Positions 4,038-62,095 of a stretch of DNA of 64,000 bases are shown here, in pieces; the stretch's first letter is position 1, and each line of letters opens with the position of its first letter. The translations under genes were made by a program, and so were the position numbers. The DNA is taken from positions 12,775 through 76,774 of the forward strand of contig CAZPGE010000005.1 of NCBI GenBank assembly GCA_964586255.1, written 5' to 3'. Under the pieces are notes generated by a model. It was given only the letters and a program-made list of their open reading frames with translations, ran no database searches and had not been told where the DNA came from. The stretch comes from an uncultured Candidatus Saccharibacteria bacterium (GTDB lineage: Bacteria; Patescibacteriota; Minisyncoccia; Phycocordibacterales; UBA2100).

Positions 4038-4706
4038 ATGGTGCATACTGGTGTCATGTGGCAACGTCATGCATACATACGGTACGCAGTCATATTGGCG
4101 CTCGCAGGCATCGCGGTCGTGATTTGTATCCCTGTAAGCATTCGATTCGCCATGGAGCCGTATCTTTTTGCTTCATCGAATGATGTGCCGTACACCGAAG
4201 TAGCGGTAGTCCTCGGAGCTTCTGTGTATCGAGGGAAGCCGTCGCCCGTACTCGAGCGGCGAGCCGCAAAAGCAGTAGAGCTCTACCTCGCGGGCAAAGT
4301 GGGGAAGATACTCGTGACAGGGGACAATGGTGCGCTCACATACGACGAAGTGACACCCGTGAGGAAATACTTACTTGAGGCCGGGATTCCTGCGGGGGAT
4401 ATATTTCTCGATCATGCGGGATTCGATACGTATAGCAGCATGTACCGTGCGCGCGATGTATTTCTCGCGGACTCCATCACGGTGGTCACCCAAGATTTTC
4501 ATCTACCGCGTTCGGTTTACATCGCGCGTCACTTAGGAGTCGAAGCGTATGGCATTGTCGCCGGGGGAGACGGCTCGGAAAAAGACTACGTGCGAGAGAT
4601 TCCCGCATCGGGAAAGGCGGTGCTCGACCTGGCTCTACGCAGGGTGCCGAAATATCTCGGCGAGACCATTCCGCTCAGTGGCGATGGCTCGACTACGTGG
4701 TACTGA
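4038..4706 (+). CDS. SanA/YdcF (DUF218) family membrane-anchored protein
   Basis: N-terminal TM helix, then YdcF/SanA-like AVVLGASV...PVLERRAAKAVELYLAGKVGKILVTGDNG...DTYSSMYRA. Start may instead be 4056. Confidence 0.65.
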   Translation: MVHTGVMWQRHAYIRYAVILALAGIAVVICIPVSIRFAMEPYLFASSNDVPYTEVAVVLGASVYRGKPSPVLERRAAKAVELYLAGKVGKILVTGDNGALTYDEVTPVRKYLLEAGIPAGDIFLDHAGFDTYSSMYRARDVFLADSITVVTQDFHLPRSVYIARHLGVEAYGIVAGGDGSEKDYVREIPASGKAVLDLALRRVPKYLGETIPLSGDGSTTWY

Positions 4707-4730
4707 GGGGCTCATGGTATTCTTCTCGCC

Positions 4731-5024
4731 ATGCAATTCAAACTTCCGTTCAAGGGCTCACAAGACGAGGGTATCGCGCGCATCAAGCAGCTGCTCAAAG
4801 AGCATCGTGCGCAAATCACTGAGAAAGCCGCCGTCTCAAAGGAGGAGTGGAATGACAATGTCCTTTCCTTTGCCTTCGACCTCGAGGGCAAGCACATCGA
4901 AGGCACGGTCACAGTGCGCGATAACGAGTTTGATGTGTACGCCAAGCTTCCGCTCGCGCTGCGCCTCTTTGAAGGTACGATAGAGCGCATGATAGAGGCG
5001 GAGGCAAAGAAAATGGTCCTCTAG
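4731..5024 (+). CDS. Polyhydroxyalkanoic-acid-system family protein (TIGR02610-like), 97 aa
   Basis: C-terminal block GKHIEGTVTVRDNEFDVYAKLPLALRLFEGTIERMIE matches the family pattern G..G.V.V.D..V...LKLPLLA..F.GTIE. Confidence 0.5.
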   Translation: MQFKLPFKGSQDEGIARIKQLLKEHRAQITEKAAVSKEEWNDNVLSFAFDLEGKHIEGTVTVRDNEFDVYAKLPLALRLFEGTIERMIEAEAKKMVL

Positions 5025-7485: not shown

Positions 7486-8205
7486 ATGACAGAACACACA
7501 CAGAAAGATTTTAGTAATCTCTACACACCCATAGCAATCGTGCTTGCTGGCGTCATTATCGGAGCGTTTGCAATGGTGGGAATTTCAAAGACGGGCAGCG
7601 TATCATCAGGCGGAGAGCAGGCTGCGAAAGTCGATATCGCTGACGTGAATATCGAGAACGACCCGTACATCGGCGACAAGGATGCACCGGTCGTCTTGGC
7701 GTACTGGTCCGACTATCAGTGCCCATACTGTAAAGCTGTGGAGATGGGTCACCCGCAAATCCCGACGGAGCCTGCACTCCCAGTGCTCATCAAAGAATAC
7801 GTAGACACAGGCAAGCTCAGAATTGTGTTCAAAGATTACGCATTTCTCAGTGAAGATTCTACGACCGCAGCAATCTGGGGAAGGGCAGTATGGGATCTCT
7901 ATCCGACCAAGTACTTTGCATGGAGAGAAGCTATGTACACTGCGCAAGACGAAGAACATGGTGGCTTCGGCGATGAAGCATCCATATTCGCACTCACCAA
8001 GACAATCACTGGCATCGACGCAAACGCGGTGAAGACGCGCGTGGGCACGAATGCGGAGGCGTACCTCGCGCTCATCGAAGCTGACAAAGCTGAAGGCACG
8101 GGCTTTGGTGTACAGGGCACGCCCGGCTTTATCACCGGCAATACACTTATCCCTGGCGCCGTATCGCCGGAAGAGTTTAAGGCGGTGATAGAGGCACAGC
8201 TGTAA
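7486..8205 (+). CDS. DsbA-family thiol:disulfide oxidoreductase, membrane-anchored
   Basis: N-terminal TM helix; thioredoxin-fold CPYC active site (YQCPYCKA). Confidence 0.8.
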   Translation: MTEHTQKDFSNLYTPIAIVLAGVIIGAFAMVGISKTGSVSSGGEQAAKVDIADVNIENDPYIGDKDAPVVLAYWSDYQCPYCKAVEMGHPQIPTEPALPVLIKEYVDTGKLRIVFKDYAFLSEDSTTAAIWGRAVWDLYPTKYFAWREAMYTAQDEEHGGFGDEASIFALTKTITGIDANAVKTRVGTNAEAYLALIEADKAEGTGFGVQGTPGFITGNTLIPGAVSPEEFKAVIEAQL

Positions 8206-8220
8206 GGAGAAGCTTGGTAG

Positions 8221-8316
8221 TCCTAGTGTTTTCCGTCGCTGTCTGGCCTTGCTAGGCCAGCGCTCGGTCTCGCCGCCGTCGCGGCTGCGAAGACGGAAAA
8301 CACTAGGACTACACGC
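8221..8316 (+). repeat. Structured palindromic repeat element, copy 1 (21-bp outer stem enclosing two hairpins)
   Basis: gtagtcctagtgttttCCGTC-GCTGTCT-GGCCTTGCTAGGCC-AGCGCTCGGTCTC-GCCGCCGTCGCGGC-TGCGAA-GACGGaaaacactaggactac. It is homologous to copy 2 at 51510-51594, and the differences between copies fall so that stem pairing is kept. Confidence 0.7.
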
Positions 8317-8373
8317 GCGGGGGCGCGGGAAATTTGACAATTGGTCCGAAATACGCAAGAATTGAGCCACGGG

Positions 8374-8398
8374 GTGCCCGCACGGGCACTTTTCTTTT
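8374..8398 (+). terminator. Terminator-like hairpin plus U-tract ending 7 nt before the typA start codon (attenuator, or 3' end of an sRNA containing the structured repeat)
   Basis: GTGCCCG cac GGGCAC ttttctttt, then aaacct ATG. Confidence 0.45.
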
Positions 8399-8404
8399 AA
8401 ACCT

Positions 8405-10189
8405 ATGGAAATCAGAAACATCGCCATTATTGCTCACGTCGACCACGGGAAGACCACCCTTACCGACGCTATTTTGCGTCAGACCGGTGTGGCGGAAGAG
8501 GGAGTATCGATGGACAGCAACGCGCTCGAGCAGGAGCGCGGCATCACCATCTACTCAAAGAATGCGGCCGTTTTCTATAAAGACACCAAGATAAACATCG
8601 TCGATACGCCGGGTCACGCCGACTTCGGCTCTGAAGTCGAGCGCGTCCTGCGCTCTATCGATTCCGTGCTCCTCGTCGTCGATGCGCAAGAAGGTCCTAT
8701 GCCGCAGACACGCTTCGTCCTCAAGAAGTCACTCGAGCTCGGAATCCACCCGATTGTCGTCATCAACAAAATCGACAAGCCCGCTGCCGACCCAGCCCGC
8801 TGCGAAGAGCAGGTGCTGGAGCTCTTCCTCGAGCTCGGTGCGTCCGACTCTCAGGCGGATTTCCCAATAGTGTACGCAATCGGTAAGCAGGGCATCGCCA
8901 AGCGCAAACTGACCGACGAGTCGACAGACATGAATCCGCTGCTCGACTGCGTACTCGAGCACGTAAAGCCGGCAAATGCATCAGCAAGCTCGACTGCTGC
9001 ATTTCGCGCACAGCCGTTCAATCTAGGCTACGACAACTTCCTCGGTCGACTTGCTGTCGCGCGTGTCTACGAGGGTACGCTCAAAATTGGCGACACTGTC
9101 TTTGTGAAGAAACCGACGGGTGAGACACGACCAGGCAAAATCACCAAGATGTCGACCTTCAAAGGCTTGCAGAAAATCGACGCTGCCGAAATCATCGCAG
9201 GAGACATCGCGCTTATCGCGGGTCTGCCCGATATATTTATCGGTGAGACGATAACCAACGACTCTTCTGTAGAGCCGCTCCCCGCTATCGCCATCGACGA
9301 ACCAACTATCACGCTGAACTTCCTCGTGAACAATTCTCCGTTTGCCGGTCGAGAAGGCAAATATGTGACGACACGCCAAATCCGCGACCGGCTTGAGAAA
9401 GAACTCGAGATCAACGTCGGTCTTCGTGTAGATTTCTCTGGTGGCGATACCTTTAAAGTTTCGGGTCGCGGCGAACTCCACATCGCCATCTTGCTGGAAA
9501 ACATGCGACGCGAAGGCTACGAAATGCAGGTCTCTCAGCCGCAGGTCATCATCCGCGAAGAAGAAGGGAAGAAACTCGAACCGTTTGAAGAGGTCATCGT
9601 CGACACCCCGAGCGAATACCAGGGTCCCATCATCGAGCGCTTGGGTACGCGCAAATTTGTGATGAAGGACTTGAAAGTACATGAAAACAGCGTGCGCCTG
9701 ACGTTTGACGGGCCTACACGCGGACTCCTCGGCTACAAGAACCAGTTTGTCCTCGACACCAAGGGGGAAGGTATTCTCTCGAGCCGCGTCGTTGGATTCC
9801 AGCCATACGCAGGCGAAATCAAGAAGAAGCAGGTGGGCTCGATGATTTCGATGGCCGCCGGCAAAGCACTCGGATTCTCTCTGTGGAATCTTCAGGAACG
9901 CGGCGTTATCTATATCGGACCAGCCGTAGAAGTGTACGAAGGTCAGGTCATCGGCAATACTTCAAAGGGTGAGGAGATGACCGTCAATCCTACCAAGGGC
10001 AAGCAGCTCACCAACATGCGCTCCAAGGGTACCGACGAGGCGCTCAATCTCGTGCCGCCCTTTGAACTCACCATCGAACGCGGTCTCGAAGTCATGGCTG
10101 AAGATGAGTATCTCGAAATCACACCGCAATCTGTCCGCTTGCGAAAGCAGGCACTCACGGAGAACGACCGCACCAAGTCACGCCGCTAA
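8405..10189 (+). CDS. typA: Translational GTPase TypA/BipA
   Basis: NIAIIAHVDHGKTTL, DTPGHADF and NKID G-domain motifs; about 600 aa with the BipA-type C-terminus. Confidence 0.9.
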   Translation: MEIRNIAIIAHVDHGKTTLTDAILRQTGVAEEGVSMDSNALEQERGITIYSKNAAVFYKDTKINIVDTPGHADFGSEVERVLRSIDSVLLVVDAQEGPMPQTRFVLKKSLELGIHPIVVINKIDKPAADPARCEEQVLELFLELGASDSQADFPIVYAIGKQGIAKRKLTDESTDMNPLLDCVLEHVKPANASASSTAAFRAQPFNLGYDNFLGRLAVARVYEGTLKIGDTVFVKKPTGETRPGKITKMSTFKGLQKIDAAEIIAGDIALIAGLPDIFIGETITNDSSVEPLPAIAIDEPTITLNFLVNNSPFAGREGKYVTTRQIRDRLEKELEINVGLRVDFSGGDTFKVSGRGELHIAILLENMRREGYEMQVSQPQVIIREEEGKKLEPFEEVIVDTPSEYQGPIIERLGTRKFVMKDLKVHENSVRLTFDGPTRGLLGYKNQFVLDTKGEGILSSRVVGFQPYAGEIKKKQVGSMISMAAGKALGFSLWNLQERGVIYIGPAVEVYEGQVIGNTSKGEEMTVNPTKGKQLTNMRSKGTDEALNLVPPFELTIERGLEVMAEDEYLEITPQSVRLRKQALTENDRTKSRR

Positions 10190-15894: not shown

Positions 15895-15951
15895 CTACCA
15901 CTCCGATTTTTCACAAAGAAATCGTACGCAATTAGACACAGGGAATCTGTT

Positions 15952-15977
15952 CTAGTGTTTTGCAAAAGACTGCAATA
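15952..15977 (+). repeat. 26-nt near-palindromic repeat, copy A (candidate operator; overlaps the -35-like TTGCAA of the arsR-like gene)
   Basis: ctagtgttttgcaaaagactgcaata, with core AGTGTTTTG|CAAAAGACT (8 of 9 positions palindromic). Exact copies lie at 16242-16267 and 44438-44463. Confidence 0.8.
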
Positions 15978-15992
15978 GATTAAAATATATGC

Positions 15993-16268
15993 ATGGCGGA
16001 GGTTTCGTACAGGAAACTTGAGCGCATCATCAAAGGGTTCGCCAATCACCGGCGTCTGCAAATTTTGGACTTGCTCAAGCGCGAGCCGGAGTTATCCGTG
16101 GAAGATGTCTCGGAGAGGCTGCGCATAGGATATGAGAATGCGTCTGACCACTTGCGCAAGCTGGCGGTCGCGGGGCTCGTCCTCAAGCGCAATGAGGGGA
16201 GTAGTGTACGGCACAAGCTGACCACTCGCGCCGAGTCTATACTAGTGTTTTGCAAAAGACTGCAATAA
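15993..16268 (+). CDS. ArsR/SmtB-family HTH transcriptional regulator (91 aa), possible controller of the downstream RM gene
   Basis: HRRLQILDLLKREPELSVEDVSERLRIGYENASDHLRKLAVAGLVLKRNEGSSVRHKLT is a winged-HTH ArsR pattern. Its last 9 codons and stop are encoded by repeat copy B. Confidence 0.7.
   Translation: MAEVSYRKLERIIKGFANHRRLQILDLLKREPELSVEDVSERLRIGYENASDHLRKLAVAGLVLKRNEGSSVRHKLTTRAESILVFCKRLQ
16242..16267 (+). repeat. 26-nt near-palindromic repeat, copy B (3' end of the arsR-like gene, upstream of the RM leader)
   Basis: Identical 26-mer ctagtgttttgcaaaagactgcaata. Confidence 0.8.
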
Positions 16269-35029: not shown

Positions 35030-35483
35030 ACGTATGAGTGCGATTGCTCGCAATTATGGAAAAGCGACTCCCGTCATTTTTTCTTTGTGCCCGCCGTTAC
35101 CGACGGGATTTCAAAAAAATGTTTCGGTAGGGAGACTACCGGAGGGTTTCCGCAGATACTATGCGCCGCTTCGCATGTCCGATTGTCGTCCGCCATTCGC
35201 CATCCGGCGAAGGCGGACCGACCCCTCTCCTCGTATCCCCAAATATGGGGCCACACGCTCTAAGAAACACATTCGCTTTCCGTTTTCTAATCACCGTCCC
35301 TGGGACGGCTCTCCACACAATACATCCGGTACGGAGGTGTGCAATGCACCCTTGCGCGATTCTCATGGTGTGCTAATTTCGAGATATGGCCCAGCGACGT
35401 CATATGATGAAGCGTCCTACGACCTCCCCTGAGGCGGCTGTTGCCATGCACGAGTAAACACATCATCCCGAGCAAGACAATCA

Positions 35484-43991: not shown

Positions 43992-44784
43992 AAAGACACG
44001 CGCATTTCGAATCACGGTTTGGGAATACTATAAGAAACACGCGCGACATGAGTTGCCGTGGCGCAAGACACGCGACCCATACAAGATACTTGTCTCAGAA
44101 GTTATGCTGCAGCAGACGCAGGTTCCACGCGTTGTGGATAAGTACAAAGAATTTCTCATAGCATTTCCGACTATCTATGTACTTGCACAAGCGTCGCTCG
44201 CCGATGTGCTCAGGGTCTGGAGCGGGCTTGGGTATAATCGGCGGGCAAAGTATCTCCACGACGCGGCAAAGGTGATTGCCAATGAGTACAGAGGCGACAT
44301 AGAGGCCGCCACAAAGGCTAAGAAGCTTCCCGGCGTGGGACCATACACGAAATCTGCGGTACGTGTCTTTGCATTCAATGAGCCCCATGTACTGATTGAG
44401 ACCAATGTCCGCGCCGCATTTATCCATCACTTCTATTCTAGTGTTTTGCAAAAGACTGCAATAACGGATAAGGAGCTTATGCCGATTATAGAAAAAGCTG
44501 CGGAAAGCCAAGACCCGAGGGAATGGCACTGGGCACTTATGGACTATGGCTCGCATGTAAAGAAGGCGCATAGTAATCCGGCGCGACGCAGTGCTTCCCA
44601 CATCCGTCAGTCGAAATTTGAGGGGAGTCTTCGCCAAGTGCGCGGCGCGATACTGCGTGCATTGCACGAAGGCGTGTCGTTGAAGACATTGCCGTACGAA
44701 CAGGCGCGACTAAAAATCGCCCTCGCATTACTGCAAAAGGACGGTCTGTTGGCAAAAGAGGGGAAGACCTGGCGTATCGCCTAG
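43981..44784 (+). CDS. MutY/EndoIII-like HhH-GPD DNA glycosylase lacking Fe-S cysteines; contains a copy of the 26-nt repeat in frame
   Basis: LPWRKTRDPYKILVSEVMLQQTQV...VLIETNVRA... is MutY-like; there are no Cys in the usual cluster region. Repeat copy C encodes SSVLQKTAIT. Confidence 0.7.
   Translation: MTSKKTRAFRITVWEYYKKHARHELPWRKTRDPYKILVSEVMLQQTQVPRVVDKYKEFLIAFPTIYVLAQASLADVLRVWSGLGYNRRAKYLHDAAKVIANEYRGDIEAATKAKKLPGVGPYTKSAVRVFAFNEPHVLIETNVRAAFIHHFYSSVLQKTAITDKELMPIIEKAAESQDPREWHWALMDYGSHVKKAHSNPARRSASHIRQSKFEGSLRQVRGAILRALHEGVSLKTLPYEQARLKIALALLQKDGLLAKEGKTWRIA
44438..44463 (+). repeat. 26-nt near-palindromic repeat, copy C (inside the mutY-like CDS)
   Basis: Identical 26-mer ctagtgttttgcaaaagactgcaata; the flanks ttctattCTAG resemble copy A's tctgttCTAG. 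Confidence 0.8.
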
Positions 44785-49514: not shown

Positions 49515-49838
49515 ATGAAGAAACCGGTACAAAAATCTAATACATCCAAATTCACATTTAAGCCTGCGGGTGACCGTGTGCTCGTGAAGCCTGAATCGGT
49601 CGAGGAAAAGACTGCCTCCGGCATCATCATTCCCGACACAGCTCGCAAGGAAAAGCCGGAGACGGGAGTCGTAGTGGCCGTAGGCGAAGGTAAGCGCAAT
49701 GAGAAGGGCGATGTGCTCCCTATGCGTTACAAGGTTGGGGACAAGGTCATGTTCTCGAAATACGGATACGACGAAGTGACCATTGAAGACGAGGAGTACT
49801 ACGTCGTCTCTGAATCAAATATCCTCGGCACGTTTTAA
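49515..49838 (+). CDS. groES: Co-chaperonin GroES (with a 12-aa N-terminal extension)
   Basis: FKPAGDRVLVKP...ASGIIIPDTA...GVVVAVGEG...GDKVMFSKYG. Confidence 0.9.
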   Translation: MKKPVQKSNTSKFTFKPAGDRVLVKPESVEEKTASGIIIPDTARKEKPETGVVVAVGEGKRNEKGDVLPMRYKVGDKVMFSKYGYDEVTIEDEEYYVVSESNILGTF

Positions 49839-49856: not shown

Positions 49857-51497
49857 ATGGCAAAACAGGTAATTTTCGACCAGGAAGTCAGGCAGCGCCT
49901 CAAGCGAGGTGTCGATATCGTCGCAGGGGCAGTAAAGGTAACGCTCGGTCCCAAGGGCCGAAATGTTGCGCTCTCAAAGTCGTGGGGCGGACCGACAATA
50001 ACCAACGACGGCGTGTCTATCGCCAAAGACATCACACTTGCCGACAAGTTTGAGGACATGGGCGCGTCTATCGTGAAAGAAGTTGCGACCAAGACCAACG
50101 ACAAAGCGGGCGATGGTACTACGACCGCTGTCATCCTCACGCAGGCAATCATCCACGAGGGTATGAAGAAGACCGCGATGGGCGCCAACGCGATGATGAT
50201 TCGCCGCGGCATCGAATCTGCTGCAAAAGATGCGGTGGAAGAGCTCAAGAAGATTGCCAAGCCGGTGAAGGGTAAGAGTGATATCCGCCAGGTAGCGACA
50301 ATCTCGGCCGAGAGCGATGAGCTTGGTAAGACGATTGCAGATATCGTGGAGAAAGTCGGAAAAGACGGTGTTGTCACCGTAGAGGAGTCGCAGTCTTTCG
50401 GCATCGAGAGTGATTTCGTCGAGGGCATGGAGTTCGACAAGGGATATGTCTCGGCATATATGATGACGAACCCTGAGCGCATGGAAGCCGAGGTGAAAGA
50501 CGCTGTGATACTCATCACCGACAAAAAGATTTCCGCGGTCAAAGATATTCTCCCGATTCTTGAGAAAGTAGCGCAGACCGGCAAGAAAGATCTCGTCATC
50601 ATCGCAGACGACGTTGATGGGGAAGCGCTCACCACATTTGTGCTCAACAAGCTCCGCGGCATATTCAACGTACTCGCAGTGAAGGCGCCCGGATACGGCG
50701 ACAGAAAGAAAGAGATTCTCAGCGACATTGCCATCACGGTCGGCGGTCAGGTCATCTCCGATGATCTCGGACTCTCTCTTGAAAAGGCCGAGCTCACGAT
50801 GCTTGGCCGCGCCAATCGCATCGTCGCCACGAAAGACTCGACGACCATCGTCGGGGGCAAGGGAAAGAAAAGCGATATCGAGAAGCGTGTCGCGCAATTG
50901 CAAGTGCAGCTCGAAAATACAGACTCAAAATTCGACAAAGAGAAGTTGCAGGAGAGAATCGCAAAACTCACGGGAGGCGTGGCGGTCATTCGCGTCGGTG
51001 CTGCCACTGAGACAGAGATGAAGTACCTCAAGGACAAAATAGAAGATGCAGTCAATGCGACGAAGGCGGCTATCTCGGAAGGTATCGTACCCGGCGGCGG
51101 AGCGACGCTCGCCAAAGTGTCGGCCAAACTTCAGAAGAATATGGAGAAGGTCTCCAAGGAAAGCGGCGATGAGTTTGCGGCAGGTTACAGCATTCTCGTC
51201 GGCGCACTCACGGCACCGTTTAAACAAATCGTGCGCAACGCGGGACGAGAAGACGAAATGGTCTTGCTCGCAGAAATCTCTGGCAACAACATGAAGGGAT
51301 TCAATGCGGCGACGGAAGAAGTGGTGGACATGATAGAAGCCGGCATCATCGACCCGGTGAAAGTGACCCGCAGTGGTGTGGAAAACGCCGCGTCTGCCGC
51401 AGCGGTACTTCTCACAACTGAGGCTGCGGTCGCAGATATTCCTGAAGAAAAGAAGGATGCAGGACAAGGTGGCATGTCGGGTGGCATGGATATGTAG
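49857..51497 (+). CDS. groEL: Chaperonin GroEL
   Basis: MAKQVIFDQEVR...AGDGTTTA...; C-terminal GGMSGGMDM. Confidence 0.95.
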   Translation: MAKQVIFDQEVRQRLKRGVDIVAGAVKVTLGPKGRNVALSKSWGGPTITNDGVSIAKDITLADKFEDMGASIVKEVATKTNDKAGDGTTTAVILTQAIIHEGMKKTAMGANAMMIRRGIESAAKDAVEELKKIAKPVKGKSDIRQVATISAESDELGKTIADIVEKVGKDGVVTVEESQSFGIESDFVEGMEFDKGYVSAYMMTNPERMEAEVKDAVILITDKKISAVKDILPILEKVAQTGKKDLVIIADDVDGEALTTFVLNKLRGIFNVLAVKAPGYGDRKKEILSDIAITVGGQVISDDLGLSLEKAELTMLGRANRIVATKDSTTIVGGKGKKSDIEKRVAQLQVQLENTDSKFDKEKLQERIAKLTGGVAVIRVGAATETEMKYLKDKIEDAVNATKAAISEGIVPGGGATLAKVSAKLQKNMEKVSKESGDEFAAGYSILVGALTAPFKQIVRNAGREDEMVLLAEISGNNMKGFNAATEEVVDMIEAGIIDPVKVTRSGVENAASAAAVLLTTEAAVADIPEEKKDAGQGGMSGGMDM

Positions 51498-51509
51498 CTC
51501 GCCGAGTGC

Positions 51510-51594
51510 TGATATTTTGCCGTCGCTATCTGGCGCTGCTGCGCCAGCGCTCAGTCTCGGGCCCGTCGGCCCTACGAAGACGGCAAAATATCAC
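51510..51594 (+). repeat. Structured palindromic repeat element, copy 2 (homolog of 8221-8316)
   Basis: tgatattttGCCGTC-GCTATCT-GGCGCTGCTGCGCC-AGCGCTCAGTCTC-GGGCCCGTCGGCCC-TACGAA-GACGGCaaaatatca. Against copy 1, the core CCGTCGCT.TCTGG...CCAGCGCTC.GTCTCG...CGAAGACGG is conserved while both inner hairpins change with pairing preserved. Confidence 0.7.
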
Positions 51595-51676
51595 ACTGCG
51601 GCTCGCAGTCGATAAAGGAGGAGGAAATCAACAGGCGGCGCCCTCATGGGGCGCCGCCTTGGTACAATAGATACAC

Positions 51677-52702: not shown

Positions 52703-52765
52703 GTTTTTCTAAAGCATTCCACATGCGGCGCCACGAATGTGGCGCCGCGCTGGTATGATTGGGCT

Positions 52766-55700
52766 ATGTCGAGCCTCGCAAGGCTATTCTTTCTTGTACT
52801 CATCAGTACATCTTTTTCGCTCCCGGGAAATGTGGCTGCGCTTTCGGCTGAGGCGAATGCGATGTGCAAGCCATACATCGCGGAGTGCCCGTGCAATCAG
52901 GTGCTGAATAAATGGAGGTTCATGCCCGGTCAGCCGAAGTGTAAGGCGGGTGGAGAGAAAAACGGCGCGGGATATAGCAATACACATGCGTGCAAGGTGG
53001 GTGTATGTAAAGACGTCACAAACGAACACGTGACACAGGGAGTGTGCATTGCGGCCGGGAAATGTGAGGGGAAGCTTGCAGACGACAAACCGGTACAAAA
53101 GACTGACGTGCCGGTGAAAGACGGCGATAAGCCGGTGACCGCTGAGCCGCCGCCTCCGCCATCGGTATCAGACACGGGTGATGTGACAGGTGGCATGCCG
53201 CAGAAACCGGAGGTGCCTGAGACGACTGTGCAAGACCCGACAAAGGACCTCCAGGAGACACCTGACACCGAAACCCCCATCCCGTCCGGCTCTGCGAAGA
53301 GTGTCGAAGATCAGTTGAAGGAAGCGGCAGGCGAGCCGAGTCTCTGGGAAAGGTGGTTTGGAGGTGAAACTACGCCGAAGCCGGAGACTCCTGCACAACC
53401 GGATGCTCCAGTGGGGCTCGACGGGCAGCCAGTGCAGACACTCCAGCCCGACGCAGTAGCCGACCCGCAATTGTCAGACACGGGAGTCGTTCAGACTCAG
53501 CCGGGAGAATCTACTCACACATTTGGTCAGCCTGAGGAGACCAAAACTGTCCCCGCGGAAGATGCTACGTGGTGGGGTGCGGTAAAAGATACTGCTTCTA
53601 ATGTTTGGGAGGGGGCGAAAGATATTGCGGCGAACGTGCGCGACACAGTGGCGGGCGCGTTTACATCGGATACACCATCGACTCCAAGTATCGGTGAGAT
53701 AGAGATGCCACCGCCGCCGGCGGAAGTGCCGACGTTAGCAGACACGACAACCGGTGGAACACCAGAGCCGGTACCCGCAGGCGCCAGCGCGGAGCCATCC
53801 GCGACGCAACTCAATACACCGGGAAATGTGGGACCAGTGCCGTATGCAGAAGAGCTTTCGAAACTTGGCTTCGGCAATGACTTGCTGGGAAGCAGGCTCA
53901 AAGAATTGAATGGACTTATTCAAAATGGCAATGATCGGATTGAAGCGGGAAATGCGGACCTCACAACGCGAAAAGAGTCGCTCGATGCGCAGTATGCGCA
54001 GCTGAAGAGCGCGTGTGCTGCGAATACGTGCACACAGTCACAAATAGACACATACAAAGAACGAGCAGCTGCGTACGACCGAGATGCAGCAACGCATAAA
54101 AAACTCGCAGAACAAACGAGGGAATACGTCGACTCCGCGAAAGCGATAGCCTCTGCATTGAACAAGCCAACAGACCTCTCTGCGTATACGGGACGCGTGC
54201 CTGATACACCGGAAAATAAGTTTGTGAGCGATGTATCGCGCGCGGCGCTCGGAGAAATATCGAGGCAAGAGGTGAATGCATTCTGGAACGATACGCCCGC
54301 AAGTGACCTGGTGACAGAGAGATCTCGAATCGCGGGGAATGCTTTTGAGGCGGCGACACACAATGTCACTCCATCACAAGTTGCCGACGCGTTTGGAGAT
54401 TCTGCGCGGCTCTCGGATATTCGGAATCAGACTGCAATTACAGCGGCACAGGAGCAGCTTCGACAAATAGAAACGATTCGTTCGGATACGCCGATTAGCC
54501 AGCTCACACCCGAGCAAGCGGACCTCCTCTATAGAGAGCCGCTCATACGCGAGGAGCTCACTCGACTCGAAAGTGAGTCGCAGTCTCGTGCAGAGAGGAC
54601 TGAGAATATCCAACACGCTCTCCGCAACAGTCAGTATGGAGAGCAGCTGGCGCGCGCGCTGACTACCGAACCAAAAACGCCAGTTGAGCGACTTATACAA
54701 GAGCAGCTCTATTTGAAAGCGGCGGAATTATCGCGCAACAACTTCGCCGCCGAATTGCTTAGGAATACGGAGCAAGCACCGACGGGGCTTACGCCGGAAG
54801 ATTATTACATCCCGGTGGATACCGGGAAAAATGTGTACACGGATGGGGCAGCACAAGCGGATAGGCATATCGGAGAATTGACGGGTGCTCTCAAGCCGTC
54901 ACCGGAAACACAGAGTCTCTTAGACCGCGTAAATGGCAACGAATCATTCGGCCGATATGCTCCGCGAGCGCTCGCTGATGCGACAAATTTCATCGCGGAC
55001 TTGCCCGCAAAAGGATTGGAAGCATTGGGTGTGAACAGCACGGTAGCACATGTGGCCAACGGCATTCTCAACCCGGTCAAATGGGGAGCGGCTGCCTATG
55101 ATGCGTACCTCACGCTTTCGGGCAACCCAAGTACAGAGAGAATGCTCAGCGAGTATGGCATGTCGTCTGGAGAGAGGACATTCGCGCGAGTGATGGATTA
55201 CGCGTCGATAGCTGGTGCGGTCGCCCCATCGCGTGCCCTCATGGGTCTTGGGTCGACCAATGAAATCGGTGTTGTGGCCGAATCGTCGCGCGCATTTACA
55301 TTGAGTGATTCGGTCGCGACGAATGCAGCACGTGTAGAATTGCCGGCGCGAGATTTCGGAGCGGGCGCGTATAAGCATGTCGGCGATACGCCGCTTGGTC
55401 CTGTCTATGCGGCCGACACGCTCCCGTCTGTAGCATCGAGGGTTTCAAACACGGAACGGCAAGCCATCGAAGCGCTTAGCGGCAGGTCGCTCACATCTGC
55501 CGACCGCACGATACTCTCGCAAGTGGGACTTGAAGCGCGGCCATACGGAACCGTACAGGCGGAAATAACGAGAGGTGCGGGCGTGGCGCAGATTACCGAA
55601 AGTGTAAACATCCAGCGAACGGCGCTGGTTAACGGCAATGGGGAAGTAGTGGCTGTCCAAAGCCGCGTCCTCGGCTCTGGCGCGGCAAATTTCGATGCAA

Positions 55701-58700
55701 TGGAAAGATTTGCAATCGTTGCAACTCCGGAAAACACAGGAGTATTCGCATCGCTGCGCCAGCAATTCGACAATTGGTTTGGCCGTTCGGAGCCGACTCC
55801 GAGCGCGCGGCCAACGACGGCAGATGCGACACCGTCTTCCGCTGGTGATACGACACCTTCGGCACGCCCCGCCGATACTCCGGCGCTCCTAGAGTCTCCT
55901 CGAGGCACGACTCCATCTCGTACCGCAGACGTGCCTGATGGTGCGGTGCCGACAACTCCTCGAACAGCTGCAACAGACGGGCAAATCAGCGAAATCGGTC
56001 GTCCACAAAATCTCCCAGATGCACCCGCTGCTCCTCGTGATGTCACGCCAGCGAATACGCCTGATGTCCCTGTGGTCCAGACACCCGACGCGCCTCTTGT
56101 ACCCGACGGAGCGCCAGGAGTGATTCCTGCAGAACCTCTTGCCTCTACTTTGCCGACTACTGGATGGAACCCGAGTGAGTCGCTTGCGAGATTCGCGAAA
56201 GCGAGTGTCGTAGCATTTGGTCTTCTTCACAGCCCAGTGTCTCCGCTTGTCGATACGGCCGTAGCCAGAGGTGTATCAGGCGTGCCGGGCACCGTCTCAG
56301 TAAAAGCCTGTCTTTCAGACTGGACGTGTCTTACGCCGGAGACGGGACTCGGTAAGCGATACGAATTGAACAACGTAGGGTCCAATGGCGGGAACAGGAC
56401 CGCATCTGGCTACCAGCCAGGGCCAAAGGACATGCTCATCGCTTCGCAGACATATCCACTCGGCACATATGGAGAGCTATGCAACGGCGGCAGATGCACG
56501 AAGGTATTTGTAGGCGACACAGGCAATTTCAATCAGGCAAAATATCGCTACGCCAAATTTGACCTGCTCCCACAAGTGTCTTCGGTCGTAGGTCCGACGG
56601 CTGCACAGGGGAGGACGACGATGACGTTTACGCCGTATGGAATAGCAAAGGTAGAAGATGCCGCGGCAATTACGCGAGCAATGAACGCGGGGACTGCATA
56701 CCCCGATGCGGTCGCGCAGATACAGAACAAAGTAATTGCATACGCGCCGGGGAAGAGCGTCGAGCCGACAGCTGTAGCACAGGCTGCGCCGCCCGTCCCG
56801 CAAACACCGACGAGAGTCGCAGATATATCGCCCGCAGTACCCGCAAGCCAGCCAGCGGCAGCGGGGGAGCCGCGGTCTGCTGGGCCTCGTACAGCACTTC
56901 CGGCAGAGCTCGACACTTCGACTTGGACCACGAGGCGCATAGTCGATTCTTTTGTGCCGACGAAGACACCGGTACAGGTCGTCGCTGCAGAGCTCGCGAA
57001 TCCTACGGCAGAAATAAATGCGCTTTCATCGGCGCTCGTCGCAGACGGAATCATCCCTCGAGGCTCGACGGTCACTGCGGCCGCGGATGGGACGACGAAT
57101 GTACGAATTCCGAGCGGGGAGGTGCAGACACTCAAGGTAGTGGTTCCCGAAGCACCTGCCAATCTCAATATCACAGCACCGCGTGTCAGTGTCGGCGAGC
57201 TCAGAAAAGTGTACGCGCAGACAAAGAGTCCCGACATAGGCCGGGTGCTCAGGGCAATTGATGAGCGCGGATTCAATACCGTCCCTGACCGCGCATTTTT
57301 GAACAACGACACTCTCAAACAGCTCGTCGGAGTCTTGCGCGACTACGACAGAATGTTCCCCGGTCAGGTGCCTATCATCAATGAATTGAGCGACACTATC
57401 GGGCGCCCCTTCTCTAGCACTCACACATTTGGTCAAGCTATCGACTTCCGTGCGCGCGAGTGGAGCCCGCAAGTGAAAGCGTTGCAGAATATCTTGCTCT
57501 CACATGGGATGGCGACCCCATATTCGCTCTTCCACGGTACCGGCCCGCACTTGCATGCGGACGGGGGAGAAGTGAAAGCCGCGGATGCCTCGAATCTCAA
57601 CATCTCATACAAGACCGCACCGCAATACGCGCTGCACGATGCAGAGGGTGCGCAGGTGGGGAAACAATTCGCGCTCGGTGGACCGAAAGCTGCGCCAGTA
57701 CCGCCGACAAAGGTGGCAACCGCCCCGCTCCCGAAGCCGTCTCCAGCCCAAGTCGCAATCGGTACATTTGAACCACCGGCGCCGACAAGACCCGGCCCCG
57801 CATTTACTGCGGACAATGTGCCGGCCGAATGGAAGCAGTCGCCAATCACTGTGGCGGAAGCGAAGCCTCCCGTTACAGCCCCTGAGCCTGCGGCAGTGAC
57901 CGTGCCTCCTGCGCCAAAGGCGCCTATCGCTAAACCCGCGCCGATTCAGGCTGCGGAGATTGTTCCTGTCCCGAAGCCACGACCAACTGTATCCTCGACG
58001 AAAGTACCTACAGTCACAAAAGCTGCGACTCGCAATGTTCAGCCGAAAGCAAAGAATCAGGTTGCAGTCACGAAGCAGTTGCCCCCTGTAGATACGCGGT
58101 CAGCCGATGAAATCGCAGCGCAGATGCTCGCACTCAACAACAAAGTAGCTGCACAACTGAAGGTTCCGCCCGCCGAAGCGATGCCGAAGCTTCTAGAGAG
58201 AAATACTAAAATTGGCCAGTCTCTGAAGTCCGTGCAGGCTATAAAGAGCGAGCTCGATGAGCTGGCTAATAAAGTAGTGAGTACGTCTTTGAAGTCTCAG
58301 ACACTCTATGACCAGGGCAACACCGCCGCTTCTAAGGTTGAAGGAAACAAAGTCCAACCTCTTTTCCAGCAACTCGTGGCGCATACAAAGCAACTTTCCA
58401 CGGAAGCTCTTACTGAGGCTGATATTAAAGCGGTGCAAGCAGCGGCCGGTCGTGCTAACTCGGCAGCAAATGTACTCGAGGACACCATTCATCCAGACAA
58501 GGTTGTGGGTATCTATATGAACTCGAAAAATCCCGACGGCACGGCAAAGTTTGCGGACCAAGCTGCATTCGTGAAGTACGTAAAGGGGCTGGCGGGGAAT
58601 TTCCGTGGCAGTGTGGCGCAAGTTTCGTCACCTTTGTCTACCAAGATCAAGTCGTATCAAGTGGAGATTGCTTCCAATGACGCTCTCCTCAATCAATCAA

Positions 58701-61700
58701 AGCAGTTGATGGCCGCAAAACTCAATGCGGATAGCTTGGGTGCCAAGTACGCGCTCGAGCAACTTGAAGGACAGAAAGCGACCGACGAGGCGAATGCGAG
58801 AATAGCGGCCCTCCCTCCTATTGCGGGCCTCGAGGACCTCCTCCAGTCGCCGATTGTTTCGCGAGAAGCTCGTGATGTACCGCTTTCAGAACTTTTTTCC
58901 GAGCTGAAGAATGACGTGTTGGCATTTGCACGGGAAGAGCTCGGCTTGTTTGGCGGTCCGGGTTCTGGGGGACGCACTGTCACCGTAGAGGTCGCGCCAT
59001 CGGTAAAAACTCCTGAAGTCGCCCCGGCGAAAGTTGCCGCGGTTGAAGTGCCCCCTGCTAAGAGTGCTCAAGTGCGGCCGGGGAGTGCCGCACCTACATC
59101 CGCCGTACCATCCTATGTGCCGCGCATCGCGCGATTTGGCACGGAACCTGGCACGGGACCAGTCGTGTATTCTACGCCGGCGAATATTCCTGTATTGCAG
59201 GCGCGCATGAATGTGGCGATTAGGCCTCGCAAGCCTGAAATACAAGCGGGAAGCGGAGGGCAAATATCCCCGACGCCGCGGCTCGAACCACTTCCACCGG
59301 TGCCGAGCGCAGAAGCTGCTGCGCTCGCGAGAGAGCAAGCCTTGCGTAACCCAATCGTAGGTACCGATGATTTTGCGAATTTCCCACGGCAAAAACTCGA
59401 GGGAGAGGATGCACTGCTGCAAGAGGCCGCGATTGCCAAATATGTATCAAACAAAGAGCAATTGCTCGATACGTATGAAGCCCATTTTGGTACGAAGGTC
59501 GTCAATCCCGACCTCGCGAGGCTGCTCTTCAGGGATATGGGCTATACGGGAGTCAATTCGGCCGCAGTACAAAAAGTTGTCGCCGACATGACCGACGAGC
59601 TATGGAAACGTGCGCTCGCAAACAACCCTGAAGATTATGTTGTCCTCTACACAGGTTCGGCTGGCTCGGGTAAATCAAGCTCGATAAACAACGTACTTCC
59701 TGAGATGGAGGCACGGGCCGCCGTGATTATGGATGGCACTCTCTCCAACAAGGTGCTCGCCGAGCAGAGAATTGCGGAAGCGCTCGCGGCAGGGAAGCAA
59801 GTTGAAGTCATTAATGTGTATCGCGATCCAGTAGACGCATGGAACAACGGCGTCATCGCTCGTATGAAAGATGCGCAGTCGATTGATGCTGGAAGAGTCG
59901 TACCCATATCGGTATTCGTAATGGGATATAAGCGTTCGATGGAAGTTGTGAATTCATTGCTTACCAATCCGCGTGAGGGTGTGCATGTGAGTTTGATAGA
60001 AAACGTGATTCCCGGCTCACCGAGTGAGATGAGTCCGGAGCGTTTCCAAAGCATCCGGTACTCATCGAGTATAGAGCGAACGATTCGCAACAACACCGCT
60101 GATCTTCTTGGGCGTGGAGAAATCACACCACGGCAGTACGAGGCAATCACGGGTGCGGAAGCGCCAGGCAAGCTCGCGCTCGTCGCCGACGAGCCGATCG
60201 TGCCGGTGGATAGAGAGATTCCATCTCTTACCGAGCCGGTAGCGACTGCTCCGGAGGGCCCTGTCGCGGCACTTTGGACAGGGGATGGTGTCGAGGAAAG
60301 GCTCGCATGGATACGCGGGGTGCCAGAGAGAGTCACATTAGGTCTGCAAAACTCAGTGAACAAAATTCGTGATCTAATTCCAAGCGTACAAGAGCAGACG
60401 TATCTTCCGCCTGCCGTGACACAAGCGGAGGCCGAGAGCCTTGCGCGGATAGAAGGGGCACTTCTCGATATAGACGCACGATTTCCACGGGAAGTACCCG
60501 ACGATGTGCTCGCCACACTTGAGAGAGAGCTGCAGCAGCAGGTGGCGGGGCTGAGACCATCTGAGATTGACACCATCGCGCAAAAAAGTCTCTGGCAGCG
60601 TACGAAAGAATTCTTCTCACCGAGTAAAGAATCGACCGGTGCCGCGGTGCGAGAGCCCGAGCAGCTCCAACTGCCGCTCGATGAGCCCGTACAATCGGGA
60701 CGACCGCAGGTCGATGCTACTCCCGAGCAGGTGCCAACCTCGCGCCAAGGGGAGCTCTTCCCCGAAGAGCAGCTAGAACTGCAATTCCCGACGACGGGGG
60801 ATTATGTTCAGGCGAATCTGCCGCTCGATGAGCCAGCGCAGCCGACTCGAATTCCTGACACACCAATCCAGCGTGAGCTTCCCCTCGAGTCGCCGCTTAC
60901 GGAGACGCAGCTCGAGCTCCCGCTCACTCAGAGACAGCCCGGTCTGATAGAAAGAATTCGCAATCGTATTGTAGGTACGTCGAAACCATCCGTCACCGAA
61001 CCCGTATCAGGTACAAACTATCGATACAATCCCGTCACCGACCGCTTGGAGCCAATCGCTGTCGCGCCATCGCCGGCATCGACACCGAGCCCGGCGCCAG
61101 CCGCGGAATCACGGTCGCTCACCGTGGGAAGTACCGAGGCATTCGGCGGGGCTCTACCGCCAGCAAGCGGGAAAACGCTCGCAGGGAAATTTGGCAGCGC
61201 TTCGTGGGGCACCGCAAAATTCCTGTGTGGTGGATGGAGGCGTGCAGCGTTTTGTGGCGCCGTGGGGACAGGAGTATATCTGACTGCTTCGGGGTCATCG
61301 GACCCAACATCGCCCGCAGCACCTACTGGGGGCAGTCAGCCAGGCACGGTGAGGCCGACGACTGCAGGTACTCAGACACCTACTGCGCCTTCCGCTCCAG
61401 GCACGACCCCTGCCGGCTCCGTATCGAGTCCAGTGACGCCTATACCAACACCGACTCCGACACCGACTCCGACTCCGACACCCGTCCCAACTCCTACGCC
61501 GACGCCGGCACCAGCTCCAAAACCAGGGAATCAACCAGCTCCTTCTCCTGCGCCGGTTCCGACGCCCGTGCCACTACCGAAGCCAAGACCGGACGGAGCA
61601 CCTGCGCCTGTGCCCGCACCGCAGCCTCAGCCGCAACCTGCTCCGGTCCCATCTCCTGCACCGGCACCGTCACCCGAACAGCCAACAAAGTCTGGCTCAG

Positions 61701-62095
61701 GAAGCTCGGCAGGCAGTATCGGGAGCCTGCTTGGCTCGCTCATGAACTATCTCGGTCTTGGAAACAATAGTCAGCCGAAGCCTGCGCAGCAGCCGACGAC
61801 GCCGACCCGAACTCCGACATCAACATCGACACCGACAACGGTAAAGCCGATTGTGTCGCTTGTGCCAAATCCTGCCCGTGTGAAAGCGGGATCGACCGCA
61901 GTGCTCTGGTGGGCAAGCATCGGTACGACAGAGTGCTCCGTATCGGATTCTGAAGGCACTGTGCTTGTGAAAGGTTCTTCGACTGGAAAGGCCACGACAG
62001 CAGCAATACAAGCAACATCAAAATTCACCGTGACCTGCAAAGCTCGTTCTGGCGAAGACGTCCGCGCGGAGACGACCGTCTCGCTCGCTGAGTAG
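52766..62095 (+). CDS. Giant secreted multidomain protein (about 3110 aa): Cys-rich N-domain, coiled coils, 3D domain, LAS-type Zn-metallopeptidase domain, zeta-toxin/CPT-like P-loop kinase domain, PT-repeat linker, C-terminal Ig-like domain
   Basis: One uninterrupted ORF. Signal peptide MSSLARLFFLVLISTSFSLPGNVAA starts at 52766, with TATGAT 6 nt upstream. The 3D-domain motif YGELCNGGRCTKVFVGDTGNF...FDLL is near 56.45 kb. The LAS motif STHTFGQAIDF (H-x6-D) ...HGTGPHLHADGG (H-x-H) is near 57.4-57.56 kb. Walker A VLYTGSAGSGKSS then AVIMDGTL is near 59.65 kb. (PT)n runs 61.44-61.52 kb. Confidence 0.8.
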   Translation: MSSLARLFFLVLISTSFSLPGNVAALSAEANAMCKPYIAECPCNQVLNKWRFMPGQPKCKAGGEKNGAGYSNTHACKVGVCKDVTNEHVTQGVCIAAGKCEGKLADDKPVQKTDVPVKDGDKPVTAEPPPPPSVSDTGDVTGGMPQKPEVPETTVQDPTKDLQETPDTETPIPSGSAKSVEDQLKEAAGEPSLWERWFGGETTPKPETPAQPDAPVGLDGQPVQTLQPDAVADPQLSDTGVVQTQPGESTHTFGQPEETKTVPAEDATWWGAVKDTASNVWEGAKDIAANVRDTVAGAFTSDTPSTPSIGEIEMPPPPAEVPTLADTTTGGTPEPVPAGASAEPSATQLNTPGNVGPVPYAEELSKLGFGNDLLGSRLKELNGLIQNGNDRIEAGNADLTTRKESLDAQYAQLKSACAANTCTQSQIDTYKERAAAYDRDAATHKKLAEQTREYVDSAKAIASALNKPTDLSAYTGRVPDTPENKFVSDVSRAALGEISRQEVNAFWNDTPASDLVTERSRIAGNAFEAATHNVTPSQVADAFGDSARLSDIRNQTAITAAQEQLRQIETIRSDTPISQLTPEQADLLYREPLIREELTRLESESQSRAERTENIQHALRNSQYGEQLARALTTEPKTPVERLIQEQLYLKAAELSRNNFAAELLRNTEQAPTGLTPEDYYIPVDTGKNVYTDGAAQADRHIGELTGALKPSPETQSLLDRVNGNESFGRYAPRALADATNFIADLPAKGLEALGVNSTVAHVANGILNPVKWGAAAYDAYLTLSGNPSTERMLSEYGMSSGERTFARVMDYASIAGAVAPSRALMGLGSTNEIGVVAESSRAFTLSDSVATNAARVELPARDFGAGAYKHVGDTPLGPVYAADTLPSVASRVSNTERQAIEALSGRSLTSADRTILSQVGLEARPYGTVQAEITRGAGVAQITESVNIQRTALVNGNGEVVAVQSRVLGSGAANFDAMERFAIVATPENTGVFASLRQQFDNWFGRSEPTPSARPTTADATPSSAGDTTPSARPADTPALLESPRGTTPSRTADVPDGAVPTTPRTAATDGQISEIGRPQNLPDAPAAPRDVTPANTPDVPVVQTPDAPLVPDGAPGVIPAEPLASTLPTTGWNPSESLARFAKASVVAFGLLHSPVSPLVDTAVARGVSGVPGTVSVKACLSDWTCLTPETGLGKRYELNNVGSNGGNRTASGYQPGPKDMLIASQTYPLGTYGELCNGGRCTKVFVGDTGNFNQAKYRYAKFDLLPQVSSVVGPTAAQGRTTMTFTPYGIAKVEDAAAITRAMNAGTAYPDAVAQIQNKVIAYAPGKSVEPTAVAQAAPPVPQTPTRVADISPAVPASQPAAAGEPRSAGPRTALPAELDTSTWTTRRIVDSFVPTKTPVQVVAAELANPTAEINALSSALVADGIIPRGSTVTAAADGTTNVRIPSGEVQTLKVVVPEAPANLNITAPRVSVGELRKVYAQTKSPDIGRVLRAIDERGFNTVPDRAFLNNDTLKQLVGVLRDYDRMFPGQVPIINELSDTIGRPFSSTHTFGQAIDFRAREWSPQVKALQNILLSHGMATPYSLFHGTGPHLHADGGEVKAADASNLNISYKTAPQYALHDAEGAQVGKQFALGGPKAAPVPPTKVATAPLPKPSPAQVAIGTFEPPAPTRPGPAFTADNVPAEWKQSPITVAEAKPPVTAPEPAAVTVPPAPKAPIAKPAPIQAAEIVPVPKPRPTVSSTKVPTVTKAATRNVQPKAKNQVAVTKQLPPVDTRSADEIAAQMLALNNKVAAQLKVPPAEAMPKLLERNTKIGQSLKSVQAIKSELDELANKVVSTSLKSQTLYDQGNTAASKVEGNKVQPLFQQLVAHTKQLSTEALTEADIKAVQAAAGRANSAANVLEDTIHPDKVVGIYMNSKNPDGTAKFADQAAFVKYVKGLAGNFRGSVAQVSSPLSTKIKSYQVEIASNDALLNQSKQLMAAKLNADSLGAKYALEQLEGQKATDEANARIAALPPIAGLEDLLQSPIVSREARDVPLSELFSELKNDVLAFAREELGLFGGPGSGGRTVTVEVAPSVKTPEVAPAKVAAVEVPPAKSAQVRPGSAAPTSAVPSYVPRIARFGTEPGTGPVVYSTPANIPVLQARMNVAIRPRKPEIQAGSGGQISPTPRLEPLPPVPSAEAAALAREQALRNPIVGTDDFANFPRQKLEGEDALLQEAAIAKYVSNKEQLLDTYEAHFGTKVVNPDLARLLFRDMGYTGVNSAAVQKVVADMTDELWKRALANNPEDYVVLYTGSAGSGKSSSINNVLPEMEARAAVIMDGTLSNKVLAEQRIAEALAAGKQVEVINVYRDPVDAWNNGVIARMKDAQSIDAGRVVPISVFVMGYKRSMEVVNSLLTNPREGVHVSLIENVIPGSPSEMSPERFQSIRYSSSIERTIRNNTADLLGRGEITPRQYEAITGAEAPGKLALVADEPIVPVDREIPSLTEPVATAPEGPVAALWTGDGVEERLAWIRGVPERVTLGLQNSVNKIRDLIPSVQEQTYLPPAVTQAEAESLARIEGALLDIDARFPREVPDDVLATLERELQQQVAGLRPSEIDTIAQKSLWQRTKEFFSPSKESTGAAVREPEQLQLPLDEPVQSGRPQVDATPEQVPTSRQGELFPEEQLELQFPTTGDYVQANLPLDEPAQPTRIPDTPIQRELPLESPLTETQLELPLTQRQPGLIERIRNRIVGTSKPSVTEPVSGTNYRYNPVTDRLEPIAVAPSPASTPSPAPAAESRSLTVGSTEAFGGALPPASGKTLAGKFGSASWGTAKFLCGGWRRAAFCGAVGTGVYLTASGSSDPTSPAAPTGGSQPGTVRPTTAGTQTPTAPSAPGTTPAGSVSSPVTPIPTPTPTPTPTPTPVPTPTPTPAPAPKPGNQPAPSPAPVPTPVPLPKPRPDGAPAPVPAPQPQPQPAPVPSPAPAPSPEQPTKSGSGSSAGSIGSLLGSLMNYLGLGNNSQPKPAQQPTTPTRTPTSTSTPTTVKPIVSLVPNPARVKAGSTAVLWWASIGTTECSVSDSEGTVLVKGSSTGKATTAAIQATSKFTVTCKARSGEDVRAETTVSLAE

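Follow-up and report, generated by a model that had tools for sequence, protein, structure and literature searches.

A dispersed three-helix palindromic repeat of Patescibacteria that resembles Rickettsia palindromic elements

Palindromic repeats able to insert into protein-coding genes without lethal effect are known chiefly from Rickettsia, with a few REP-rich bacteria besides. The Rickettsia palindromic elements RPE-1 to RPE-10 (Ogata et al., 2000, 2002, as cited in PMC3184786 and PMC3733652) are ~105–146 bp long, and both REPs and RPEs are found inside genes, many of them for DNA repair, e.g. uvrB and uvrA (PMC3184786; PMC3733652). A REP unit is a single hairpin of 20–40 bp with an 8–9-bp stem, an unpaired terminal tag and a CCA tail (PMC3733652). 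REPs, CGTC- and GTAG-tagged repeats and their dimers included, lie mostly downstream of ORFs, between co-directional or convergent genes (Di Nocera et al., 2013, PMC3733652); intragenic examples occur in genes for replication and repair, and the CGTC families have no dedicated transposase (PMC3733652). MITEs such as Correia, RUP, Nezha and ERIC are small and non-autonomous, have inverted-repeat ends, form long RNA hairpins, leave filled and empty sites and occasionally fuse to ORFs (PMC3184786). Long near-perfect inverted repeats are also maintained inside translated genes, namely in the mitochondrial genes of Nematomorpha (PMC6649704). Here, we describe an element of ~108 bp (36 codons) that occurs twice in a 64-kb stretch of DNA (hereafter the window) and that is probably a dispersed, non-coding palindromic DNA repeat, RPE-like, specific to Patescibacteria (CPR), and selfish or neutral.

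A covariance model of the element, run over the window, found exactly two copies, copy 1 after a dsbA-like gene and copy 2 after groEL (Table 1). The two have a 56-nt core in common, and the segments 8229–8300 and 51516–51587 (72 nt, 79% identical) form the sole long repeat pair of such kind in the window. They are also the window's two longest clean inverted repeats, with arms of 21 bp (copy 1) and 15 bp (copy 2). In both, the arms of the outer stem P1 are 100% complementary with 54 nt in between, and the predicted fold is a long P1 stem with two hairpins on top, P2 (loop UGCU) and P3 (loop CGUC). The folding energy is -62.2 kcal/mol for copy 1 (z = -8.9) and -52.2 kcal/mol for copy 2 (z = -6.4), and for neither copy did any of 200 shuffles fold as well. 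The P3 hairpin of copy 2 can be extended by the flanking UCUCG and CGA(A)GA.

Table 1. Coordinates of the two element copies, their neighbouring genes and signals, and the solo half-elements. Positions are those of the window unless a locus is named.
Feature	Position	Strand	Remarks
DsbA-like ORF	7486–8205		Precedes copy 1; Pfam
Element copy 1, type A core	8211–8318	+	Covariance-model match, 110.8 bits, E = 4.5e-31
Copy 1 P1 5' arm	8217–8237	+	21 bp, perfect
Copy 1 P2 hairpin	8243–8260	+	Fold and alignment
Copy 1 P3 hairpin	8272–8285	+	Fold and alignment
Copy 1 P1 3' arm	8292–8312	+	Inverted-repeat search
typA	8405–10189		Follows copy 1 and typA's own promoter and leader; Pfam
groES	49515–49838		Upstream of groEL
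groEL	49857–51497	+	Pfam Cpn60_TCP1, E = 1.2e-70; stop codon TAG (51495–51497) directly abuts copy 2
Element copy 2, type A core	51498–51606	+	109 nt, from 5' flank CTCG to 3' flank CTCGC; alignment
Copy 2 covariance-model match	51498–51604		103.7 bits, E = 6e-29
Copy 2 P1 5' arm	51501–51524	+	51510–51524 perfect; 51501–51508 outer extension; C51509 bulged
Copy 2 P2 hairpin	51530–51547	+	CUGGCGC, loop UGCU, GCGCCAG; fold and covariation
Copy 2 P3 hairpin	51559–51572	+	GGGCC, loop CGUC, GGCCC; fold and covariation
Copy 2 P1 3' arm	51579–51603	+	51579–51593 perfect, then outer extension CAC..CGGC
Small hairpin CTGCGGCTCGCAG	51596–51608	+	Overlaps the outer stem of the element and the CTCGC flank motif
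GC hairpin	51633–51659	+	11-bp stem; terminator-like; conserved after groEL, outside the element
Extended -10 TGGTACAAT	51660–51668	+	Of the next gene, ATG at 51677; read from sequence
Solo 3' half, locus L128	~4824–4870
Solo 3' half, locus L063	~7090–7130	-
Solo 3' half, locus L227	just downstream of 1116–1223	-
Solo 3' half, locus L019	6255–6290

The initial annotation held that copy 2 shares its core with copy 1 while the hairpins change in concert, and alignment and folds agree with it: the P2 stem goes from GGCC(U)/(A)GGCC in copy 1 to GGCGC/GCGCC in copy 2, and the P3 stem from GCCGC/GCGGC to GGGCC/GGCCC. The outer stem was likewise said to be different yet fully complementary, and the P1 arms do differ between the copies, each being completely paired. 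A further GC hairpin placed 3' of copy 2 exists as CTGCGGCTCGCAG. In the light of the whole family, however, it is better read as two things, the outer extension of P1 (GCCG.GUG / CAC..CGGC) and, in the 3' flank, a conserved motif, CTCGC.

We next turn to the wider family. A genome scan with a junction-based pattern, covering one genome per species, gave at least 39 distinct copies with one common 56-nt spacing, all of which, among the matches listed, lie in Patescibacteria MAGs (Saccharibacteria, Kaiserbacteria, Parcubacteria and Paceibacterota). Some 75 other listed matches to the pattern came from GC-rich genomes of other phyla, at other spacings and without stems, and were put down to chance. 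The covariance model, built from 39 copies, found at least four more divergent ones in addition, and a metagenome scan combined with the model gave at least 112 matches. Altogether, more than 140 copies beyond the two in the window were found, among the matches listed all in Patescibacteria MAGs or metagenomes. Several MAGs or contigs have 2–4 copies each, and the window, taken with the additional copies of the loci examined, suggests a rough density of one copy per 30–70 kb. Core conservation is partly by construction, because the scan patterns fixed the junction sequences; variation of the junctions is visible in matches made by the model only. Viral contigs gave no sign of a phage origin, with only two chance matches in coding DNA in a pattern scan and none in a further scan. 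Our literature search, sequence strings included, returned no prior description in CPR; it was incomplete, and an earlier report is possible.

Two subtypes could be told apart by their junctions. Type A, to which the window's copies belong, reads GCGCUCRGUCUCGG ... CUGCGAAGNC, and type B reads GCGCUGCCUCUCGG or GCGCUCACUCUCGG ... CUGCGAGACAC or CUGCGAGAGAC. The junction strands UCUCG and CGAGA covary between the subtypes, and in type A their pairing competes with the top of P1, a possible alternative pairing. One type B copy (L214, 10551–10677, minus strand) has an extra 20-nt palindrome, CCTGCCTGCCGGCAGGCAGG, nested in its P3–P1 junction. At another locus (L055, ~4650–4760, minus strand), a tRNA-gene-like sequence, GGGCGTAGTTCAGTGGTAGAATG...GGTTCGATTCCCGCC, was seen by eye shortly downstream of the element.

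Pairing is retained throughout the family. In 39 genome copies, 85% of cells were paired, against 64% in shuffles and 36–46% when the partner was slid by 1–3 columns, and changes on both sides were found in 33 of 41 pairs. P2 (helix 3) was 98.9% paired, with five of its seven pairs covarying, and P3 (helix 4) was 97.9% paired. For 106 distinct metagenome copies, the figure was 91% against 65% in shuffles. The initial annotation had named random drift without structural constraint, as revealed by additional copies, as what would speak against compensatory change; the extra copies confirm the concerted changes of the stems, with pairing far above that in shuffles, and this would-be refutation therefore fails. 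Structures selected as RNA on one strand normally show G–U pairs in excess of A–C mismatches. Tracing of ~700 arm pairs gave 20 G–U, 18 A–C and 15 other mismatches, P2 and P3 together had a single G–U in 468 cells, and by these arm, P2 and P3 counts no G–U excess marks either strand as the RNA strand. An apparent A–C excess in ungapped counts, considered for strand assignment, vanished once the stems were properly traced, leaving no strand signal.

Each copy has two parts. A conserved, branched centre (P2, P3 and the junctions), nearly invariant across classes of the phylum, is flanked by two arms of 15–40 bp that differ from copy to copy and are, within a copy, almost perfectly Watson–Crick complementary. 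At orthologous loci with alignable flanks, the arms differ completely (the window versus L063, and the series at tgt site 1). Copies within one genome share inner arm sequence (the two copies of L046, and L022, L049 and L061). This sharing, together with arms that vary and stay paired, points to DNA-level copying of one arm from the other or to arms being re-made at insertion. Four solo 3' halves (CCTGCGAAGNCGGCAAAA-N8-CCGCACTCGCTTG) were noted 16–25 nt after the 3' end of another element (Table 1); no solo 5' halves were found.

The groEL locus offers filled and empty sites among close relatives. Logan/NCBI contigs encode an identical GroEL protein, and a Minisyncoccota MAG is the nearest relative with a name. 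By its GroEL relatives, the organism of the window belongs to Minisyncoccota/Patescibacteria and stands close to Kaiserbacteria. The element is present 3' of groEL in the window and in L125 (GroEL 91% identical), there with another core subtype and other arms, and absent in L126 (89%) and L127 (87%), where the GC hairpin and the promoter remain. Empty sites have the stop codon, ~35 nt, the GC hairpin and the promoter; in filled sites, the whole palindrome lies upstream of the hairpin. We considered insertion into the loops of pre-existing terminator hairpins, which would explain the variable arms, and rejected it for groEL on account of this upstream position. The strong GC hairpin that the initial annotation placed ahead of the -10 element of the next gene is there. 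An equivalent hairpin stands just 5' of the next -10 in L125, with the element, and in L126 and L127, without it; hence what is conserved and terminator-like at groEL is the GC hairpin and not the element. A terminator scan accepted a T-rich tail only in the minus-strand reading of this hairpin and reported no plus-strand terminator there. The extended -10 was missed by a simple promoter scan because it has no -35; its layout, TGnTAnnAT, recurs in L125–L127, L036, L038 and L116.

In L128, a Kaiserbacteria relative (GroEL 86% identical), a different centre sits in similar arms and adjoins the 3'-half remnant of a canonical copy. There, at ~4650–4810 after groEL, an arm/flank frame, GCTCGGCGG...CCGCACTCGCTTG, surrounds an unrelated centre of ~105 nt, a sequence arrangement which suggests that arms and centres may be modular. 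Two genes downstream of groEL, the window has a 3118-aa ORF (52739–62095, plus strand) with no Pfam match on record; huge ORFs occupy the equivalent position in L126 and L127.

Further features of the window were recorded. After copy 1, at 8334–8392 (plus strand), the typA promoter (TTGACA-17-AAGAAT) is followed by a leader hairpin with a U tract; the L063 ortholog has a conserved layout, and the hairpin may thus be an attenuator. The window's only Rfam match is a glmS ribozyme/riboswitch (35065–35270, minus strand; 65.5 bits against a gathering score of 37). A palindromic motif, TCTAGTGTTTTGCAAAAGACTGCAATA, occurs three times (15943–15977, 16233–16267 and 44429–44463) and looks like a candidate operator for a dimeric transcription factor. 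Short tandem 9-nt repeats with CATACCCGAC-like units lie at 2656–2735.

To place the copies relative to genes outside the window, we used our own ORF calls, scored by codon usage and approximate, with a Pfam check for eleven host genes. The genome copies listed fell into 17 with both flanking genes in sense (+E+), seven with both in antisense (-E-), six between convergent genes (+E-) and four between divergent genes (-E+), and the metagenome copies listed showed a similar mix. Among the intergenic copies listed, sense was favoured (~57 versus 16 antisense-only). Intergenic copies often begin 0–4 nt after a stop codon, and the upstream ORFs end before the element, never inside it. The genes that precede the element are many and unrelated, and it stands behind them both ways round. 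At the syntenic locus geneA-E-geneB, L036 and L038 carry it in sense, and L116 carries it inverted. A fixed orientation to a regulated gene, as expected of a cis-regulatory 3'-UTR RNA, was therefore not found. The idea that the 5' end of the element supplies a stop codon was dropped, since a stop triplet was seen by eye in only two or three of eight antisense copies, not above chance.

A second setting is the interior of genes. Long ORFs span 46 of the 96 distinct metagenomic copies listed, and ~40 of the copies lie in frame inside housekeeping genes. In 37 of the 46, reading is confined to two frames, one in sense and the other in antisense. The sense frame (16 copies) encodes GSLSPxAxGALPLGxSACETP and the antisense frame (21 copies) GVSQADGPRGSAPRARGDSDP; in short form the peptides are GSLSP..ACETP and GVSQADGPRGSA, also written GVSQADGPRGSAPR. 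Hosts confirmed by Pfam/NCBIfam are TGT (tRNA-guanine transglycosylase, tgt), with two copies in one gene, TsaD, RecG, UvrD (twice), UvrB, UvrC, AdoHcy hydrolase and two class I aminoacyl-tRNA synthetases, one with a LeuRS editing domain. At site 2 of tgt, L179 and L189 have the element whereas L195, L197 and L220 lack it, and the net insert is 36 codons, equal to the covariance-model length of 108 nt. In L129, a 7-residue insert, SRHGEAS, was noted at exactly the position of the 36-codon element of L179; it may be the footprint of a lost copy. In tsaD, and likewise in tgt, both orientations of the element occur at one and the same site. Flipping of the centre alone, in place, was considered and discarded: the asymmetries of the tsaD arms flip together with the centre, and therefore the whole element is inverted. 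That in-gene copies are always in frame favours their translation and disfavours their removal from the RNA. Neither copy of the window lies in frame within a gene; in-frame insertion is a property seen at the level of the family.

How should the element be interpreted? The initial annotation had taken it for a structured RNA in the 3' UTRs of highly expressed, stress-related genes, and a three-way junction acting in cis as a protein- or ligand-binding RNA or a ribozyme, controlling the stability or expression of the upstream gene, could account for the very strong covariation, for the nearly invariant junction and loop bases, for the junction strands that covary between subtypes with their possible alternative pairing in type A, and for the position of the window's copies and most intergenic copies just 3' of a co-oriented stop codon. 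We nevertheless regard such a role as unlikely and did not uphold the annotation on this point. Unrelated genes precede the element, it stands in both orientations, syntenic sites included, and after groEL it comes and goes among relatives whose GroEL is 86–91% identical to that of the window. Moreover, ~40% of the copies sampled are probably translated parts of ORFs, many of them housekeeping ORFs and again in both orientations, the stems are free of G–U enrichment on either strand, and in Rfam 15, scanned to E ≤ 10, the locus had no match that reached the gathering score, nor any with an E-value below 2.9. An orientation-independent terminator, or a REP-like stabiliser of mRNA 3' ends kept by the host, would fit the very stable hairpin and its location between a stop codon and the next promoter, often between convergent genes; REPs, too, lie mostly downstream of coding regions and are candidate RNA elements (PMC3733652). 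Yet the plus strand has no U tract 3' of the hairpin, and no plus-strand terminator-like site was found at either window copy, the sequence after the 3' arm being A-rich. The GC hairpin of groEL is conserved with or without the element, copies in essential ORFs cannot terminate efficiently, and some copies lie between divergent genes. This explanation, too, appears improbable.

Intervening sequences are known in CPR rRNA genes, and the long perfect stems around a conserved compact core resemble processing stems. The in-ORF copies might thus go untranslated, being removed at the RNA level through a processing stem (e.g. RNase III cutting and religation) or a self-cleaving centre. We consider this very unlikely, more so than either of the preceding explanations: all in-gene copies keep the frame, 37 of 46 in just two frames, the net insert at tgt site 2 is exactly 36 codons, and ORFs upstream of intergenic copies end before the element. 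None of these properties would be required of a spliced element. A different, so far undescribed route of movement or renewal was also weighed, with recognition limited to the branched centre and with fold-back, self-templated synthesis restoring the arms, possibly through an RNA or single-stranded DNA intermediate. It is hinted at by arms that are perfectly complementary yet unrelated between copies, orthologous sites included, by inversion of the whole element at identical sites, and by the restriction of solo halves to the 3' side, a hint, on our analysis of four such halves and no 5' half, of 5' truncation like that of target-primed reverse transcription. If true, the element would count as a mobile element of bacteria that is SINE-like or hairpin-templated; we give this little credence.

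In-frame and intergenic spread, filled and empty sites, and the hallmarks of RPEs and REPs together lead us to read the element as a new family of RPE-like palindromic DNA. It has a size of ~100–150 bp, several copies per genome, a palindromic, stable hairpin, in-frame insertions and filled and empty sites. Counting against a selfish repeat, the analysis linked no mobilising enzyme to the element, be it a transposase, RAYT, reverse transcriptase or recombinase, and found neither a convincing target-site duplication nor a parent element; the arms, although inverted repeats, are of variable sequence, direct repeats of CTCG or CTCC at some element ends are inconsistent and only suggestive, and 1.2 Mb of CPR loci contained no separated 5' and 3' halves flanking a gene. 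A near-invariant centre with unrelated arms at orthologous sites is also unlike a simple cut-and-paste MITE. Pairing kept in old orthologous copies could instead reflect selection for function, and the sense bias and the 0–4-nt spacing from stop codons are not obviously predicted by neutral insertion.

Copies survive where insertion is tolerated. One such place lies between a stop codon, which the element follows at once, and the gene's own terminator hairpin with the promoter behind it; the copies after groEL and the dsbA-like gene occupy this permissive slot. The other is the interior of proteins, where the element is kept in frame by way of its one sense and one antisense open frame. Complementarity of the arms is probably maintained by a DNA-level process, be it template switching within the palindrome, gene conversion or renewal upon every insertion, rather than by selection on the RNA. 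The conserved centre may be a recognition module for a putative mobilising or maintaining activity. When transcribed, the hairpin right after the stop codon (-52 to -62 kcal/mol) probably forms in the mRNA, with protection of the 3' end or cleavage by RNase III as conceivable side effects. We infer from this that stabilisation of 3' ends, or another effect of the hairpin on the mRNA, is plausible.

A phylum-wide family in Patescibacteria would show that gene-tolerated palindromic repeats recur in reduced, host-dependent genomes. It would explain puzzling 36-residue insertions in CPR housekeeping proteins as well as long intergenic hairpins of CPR genomes, and it cautions against annotating such hairpins as regulatory RNAs or terminators. 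With a conserved three-helix centre, free self-complementary arms and one frame per orientation, the element is a tractable case that bears on how perfect palindromes are kept up and on the means by which such DNA spreads when no transposase is evident. CPR annotation could make use of the covariance model, which could also provide a marker for population genomics.

An integron attC site would have R''/R' core sites (RYYYAAC ... GTTRRRY) where the palindrome ends; the flanks of the element (CTCGG... and ...CTCGCTTG) showed, on inspection, no GTTRRRY. Like the coding palindromes of Nematomorpha, it lets hairpin potential and coding coexist; those palindromes, however, belong to conserved protein sequence and are not dispersed repeats with a common core. 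The element is small like a MITE and has inverted-repeat ends, a long hairpin, filled and empty sites and copies within ORFs. MITEs usually come with target-site duplications and a parent IS, and their terminal inverted repeats are conserved because the transposase binds the ends; here, by contrast, the arms are the variable part, and neither a duplication nor a parent was found. In REP, RPE and MITE families alike, it is the ends that are conserved. As with REPs, most copies lie 3' of ORFs, in co-directional or convergent arrangements, with some inside repair genes, and the CGTC motif of one REP class recurs at the top of P1 and in the P3 loop. Unlike REPs, whose unit size as described does not fit, the element is a 108-bp three-helix unit, and Patescibacteria are not among the phyla reported in PMC3733652. 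Closest are the RPEs, which share the length of ~100–150 bp, the ability to fold into a stable hairpin, many copies in the small genome of a host-dependent bacterium, an intergenic and in-frame distribution that leaves housekeeping genes intact, DNA-repair genes included, and the lack of a known transposase. RPE copies are conserved along their whole length. In a peptide-level comparison, the encoded peptides and one host protein gave no RPE-type match in NCBIfam/Pfam at E ≤ 1, and the peptides matched none of the families there. The element differs from RPEs in its hosts, which are Patescibacteria and not members of the phylum of Rickettsia, in its conserved, branched centre with arms free to vary yet complementary, and in its ability to occupy one site in either orientation, with one dedicated frame for each.
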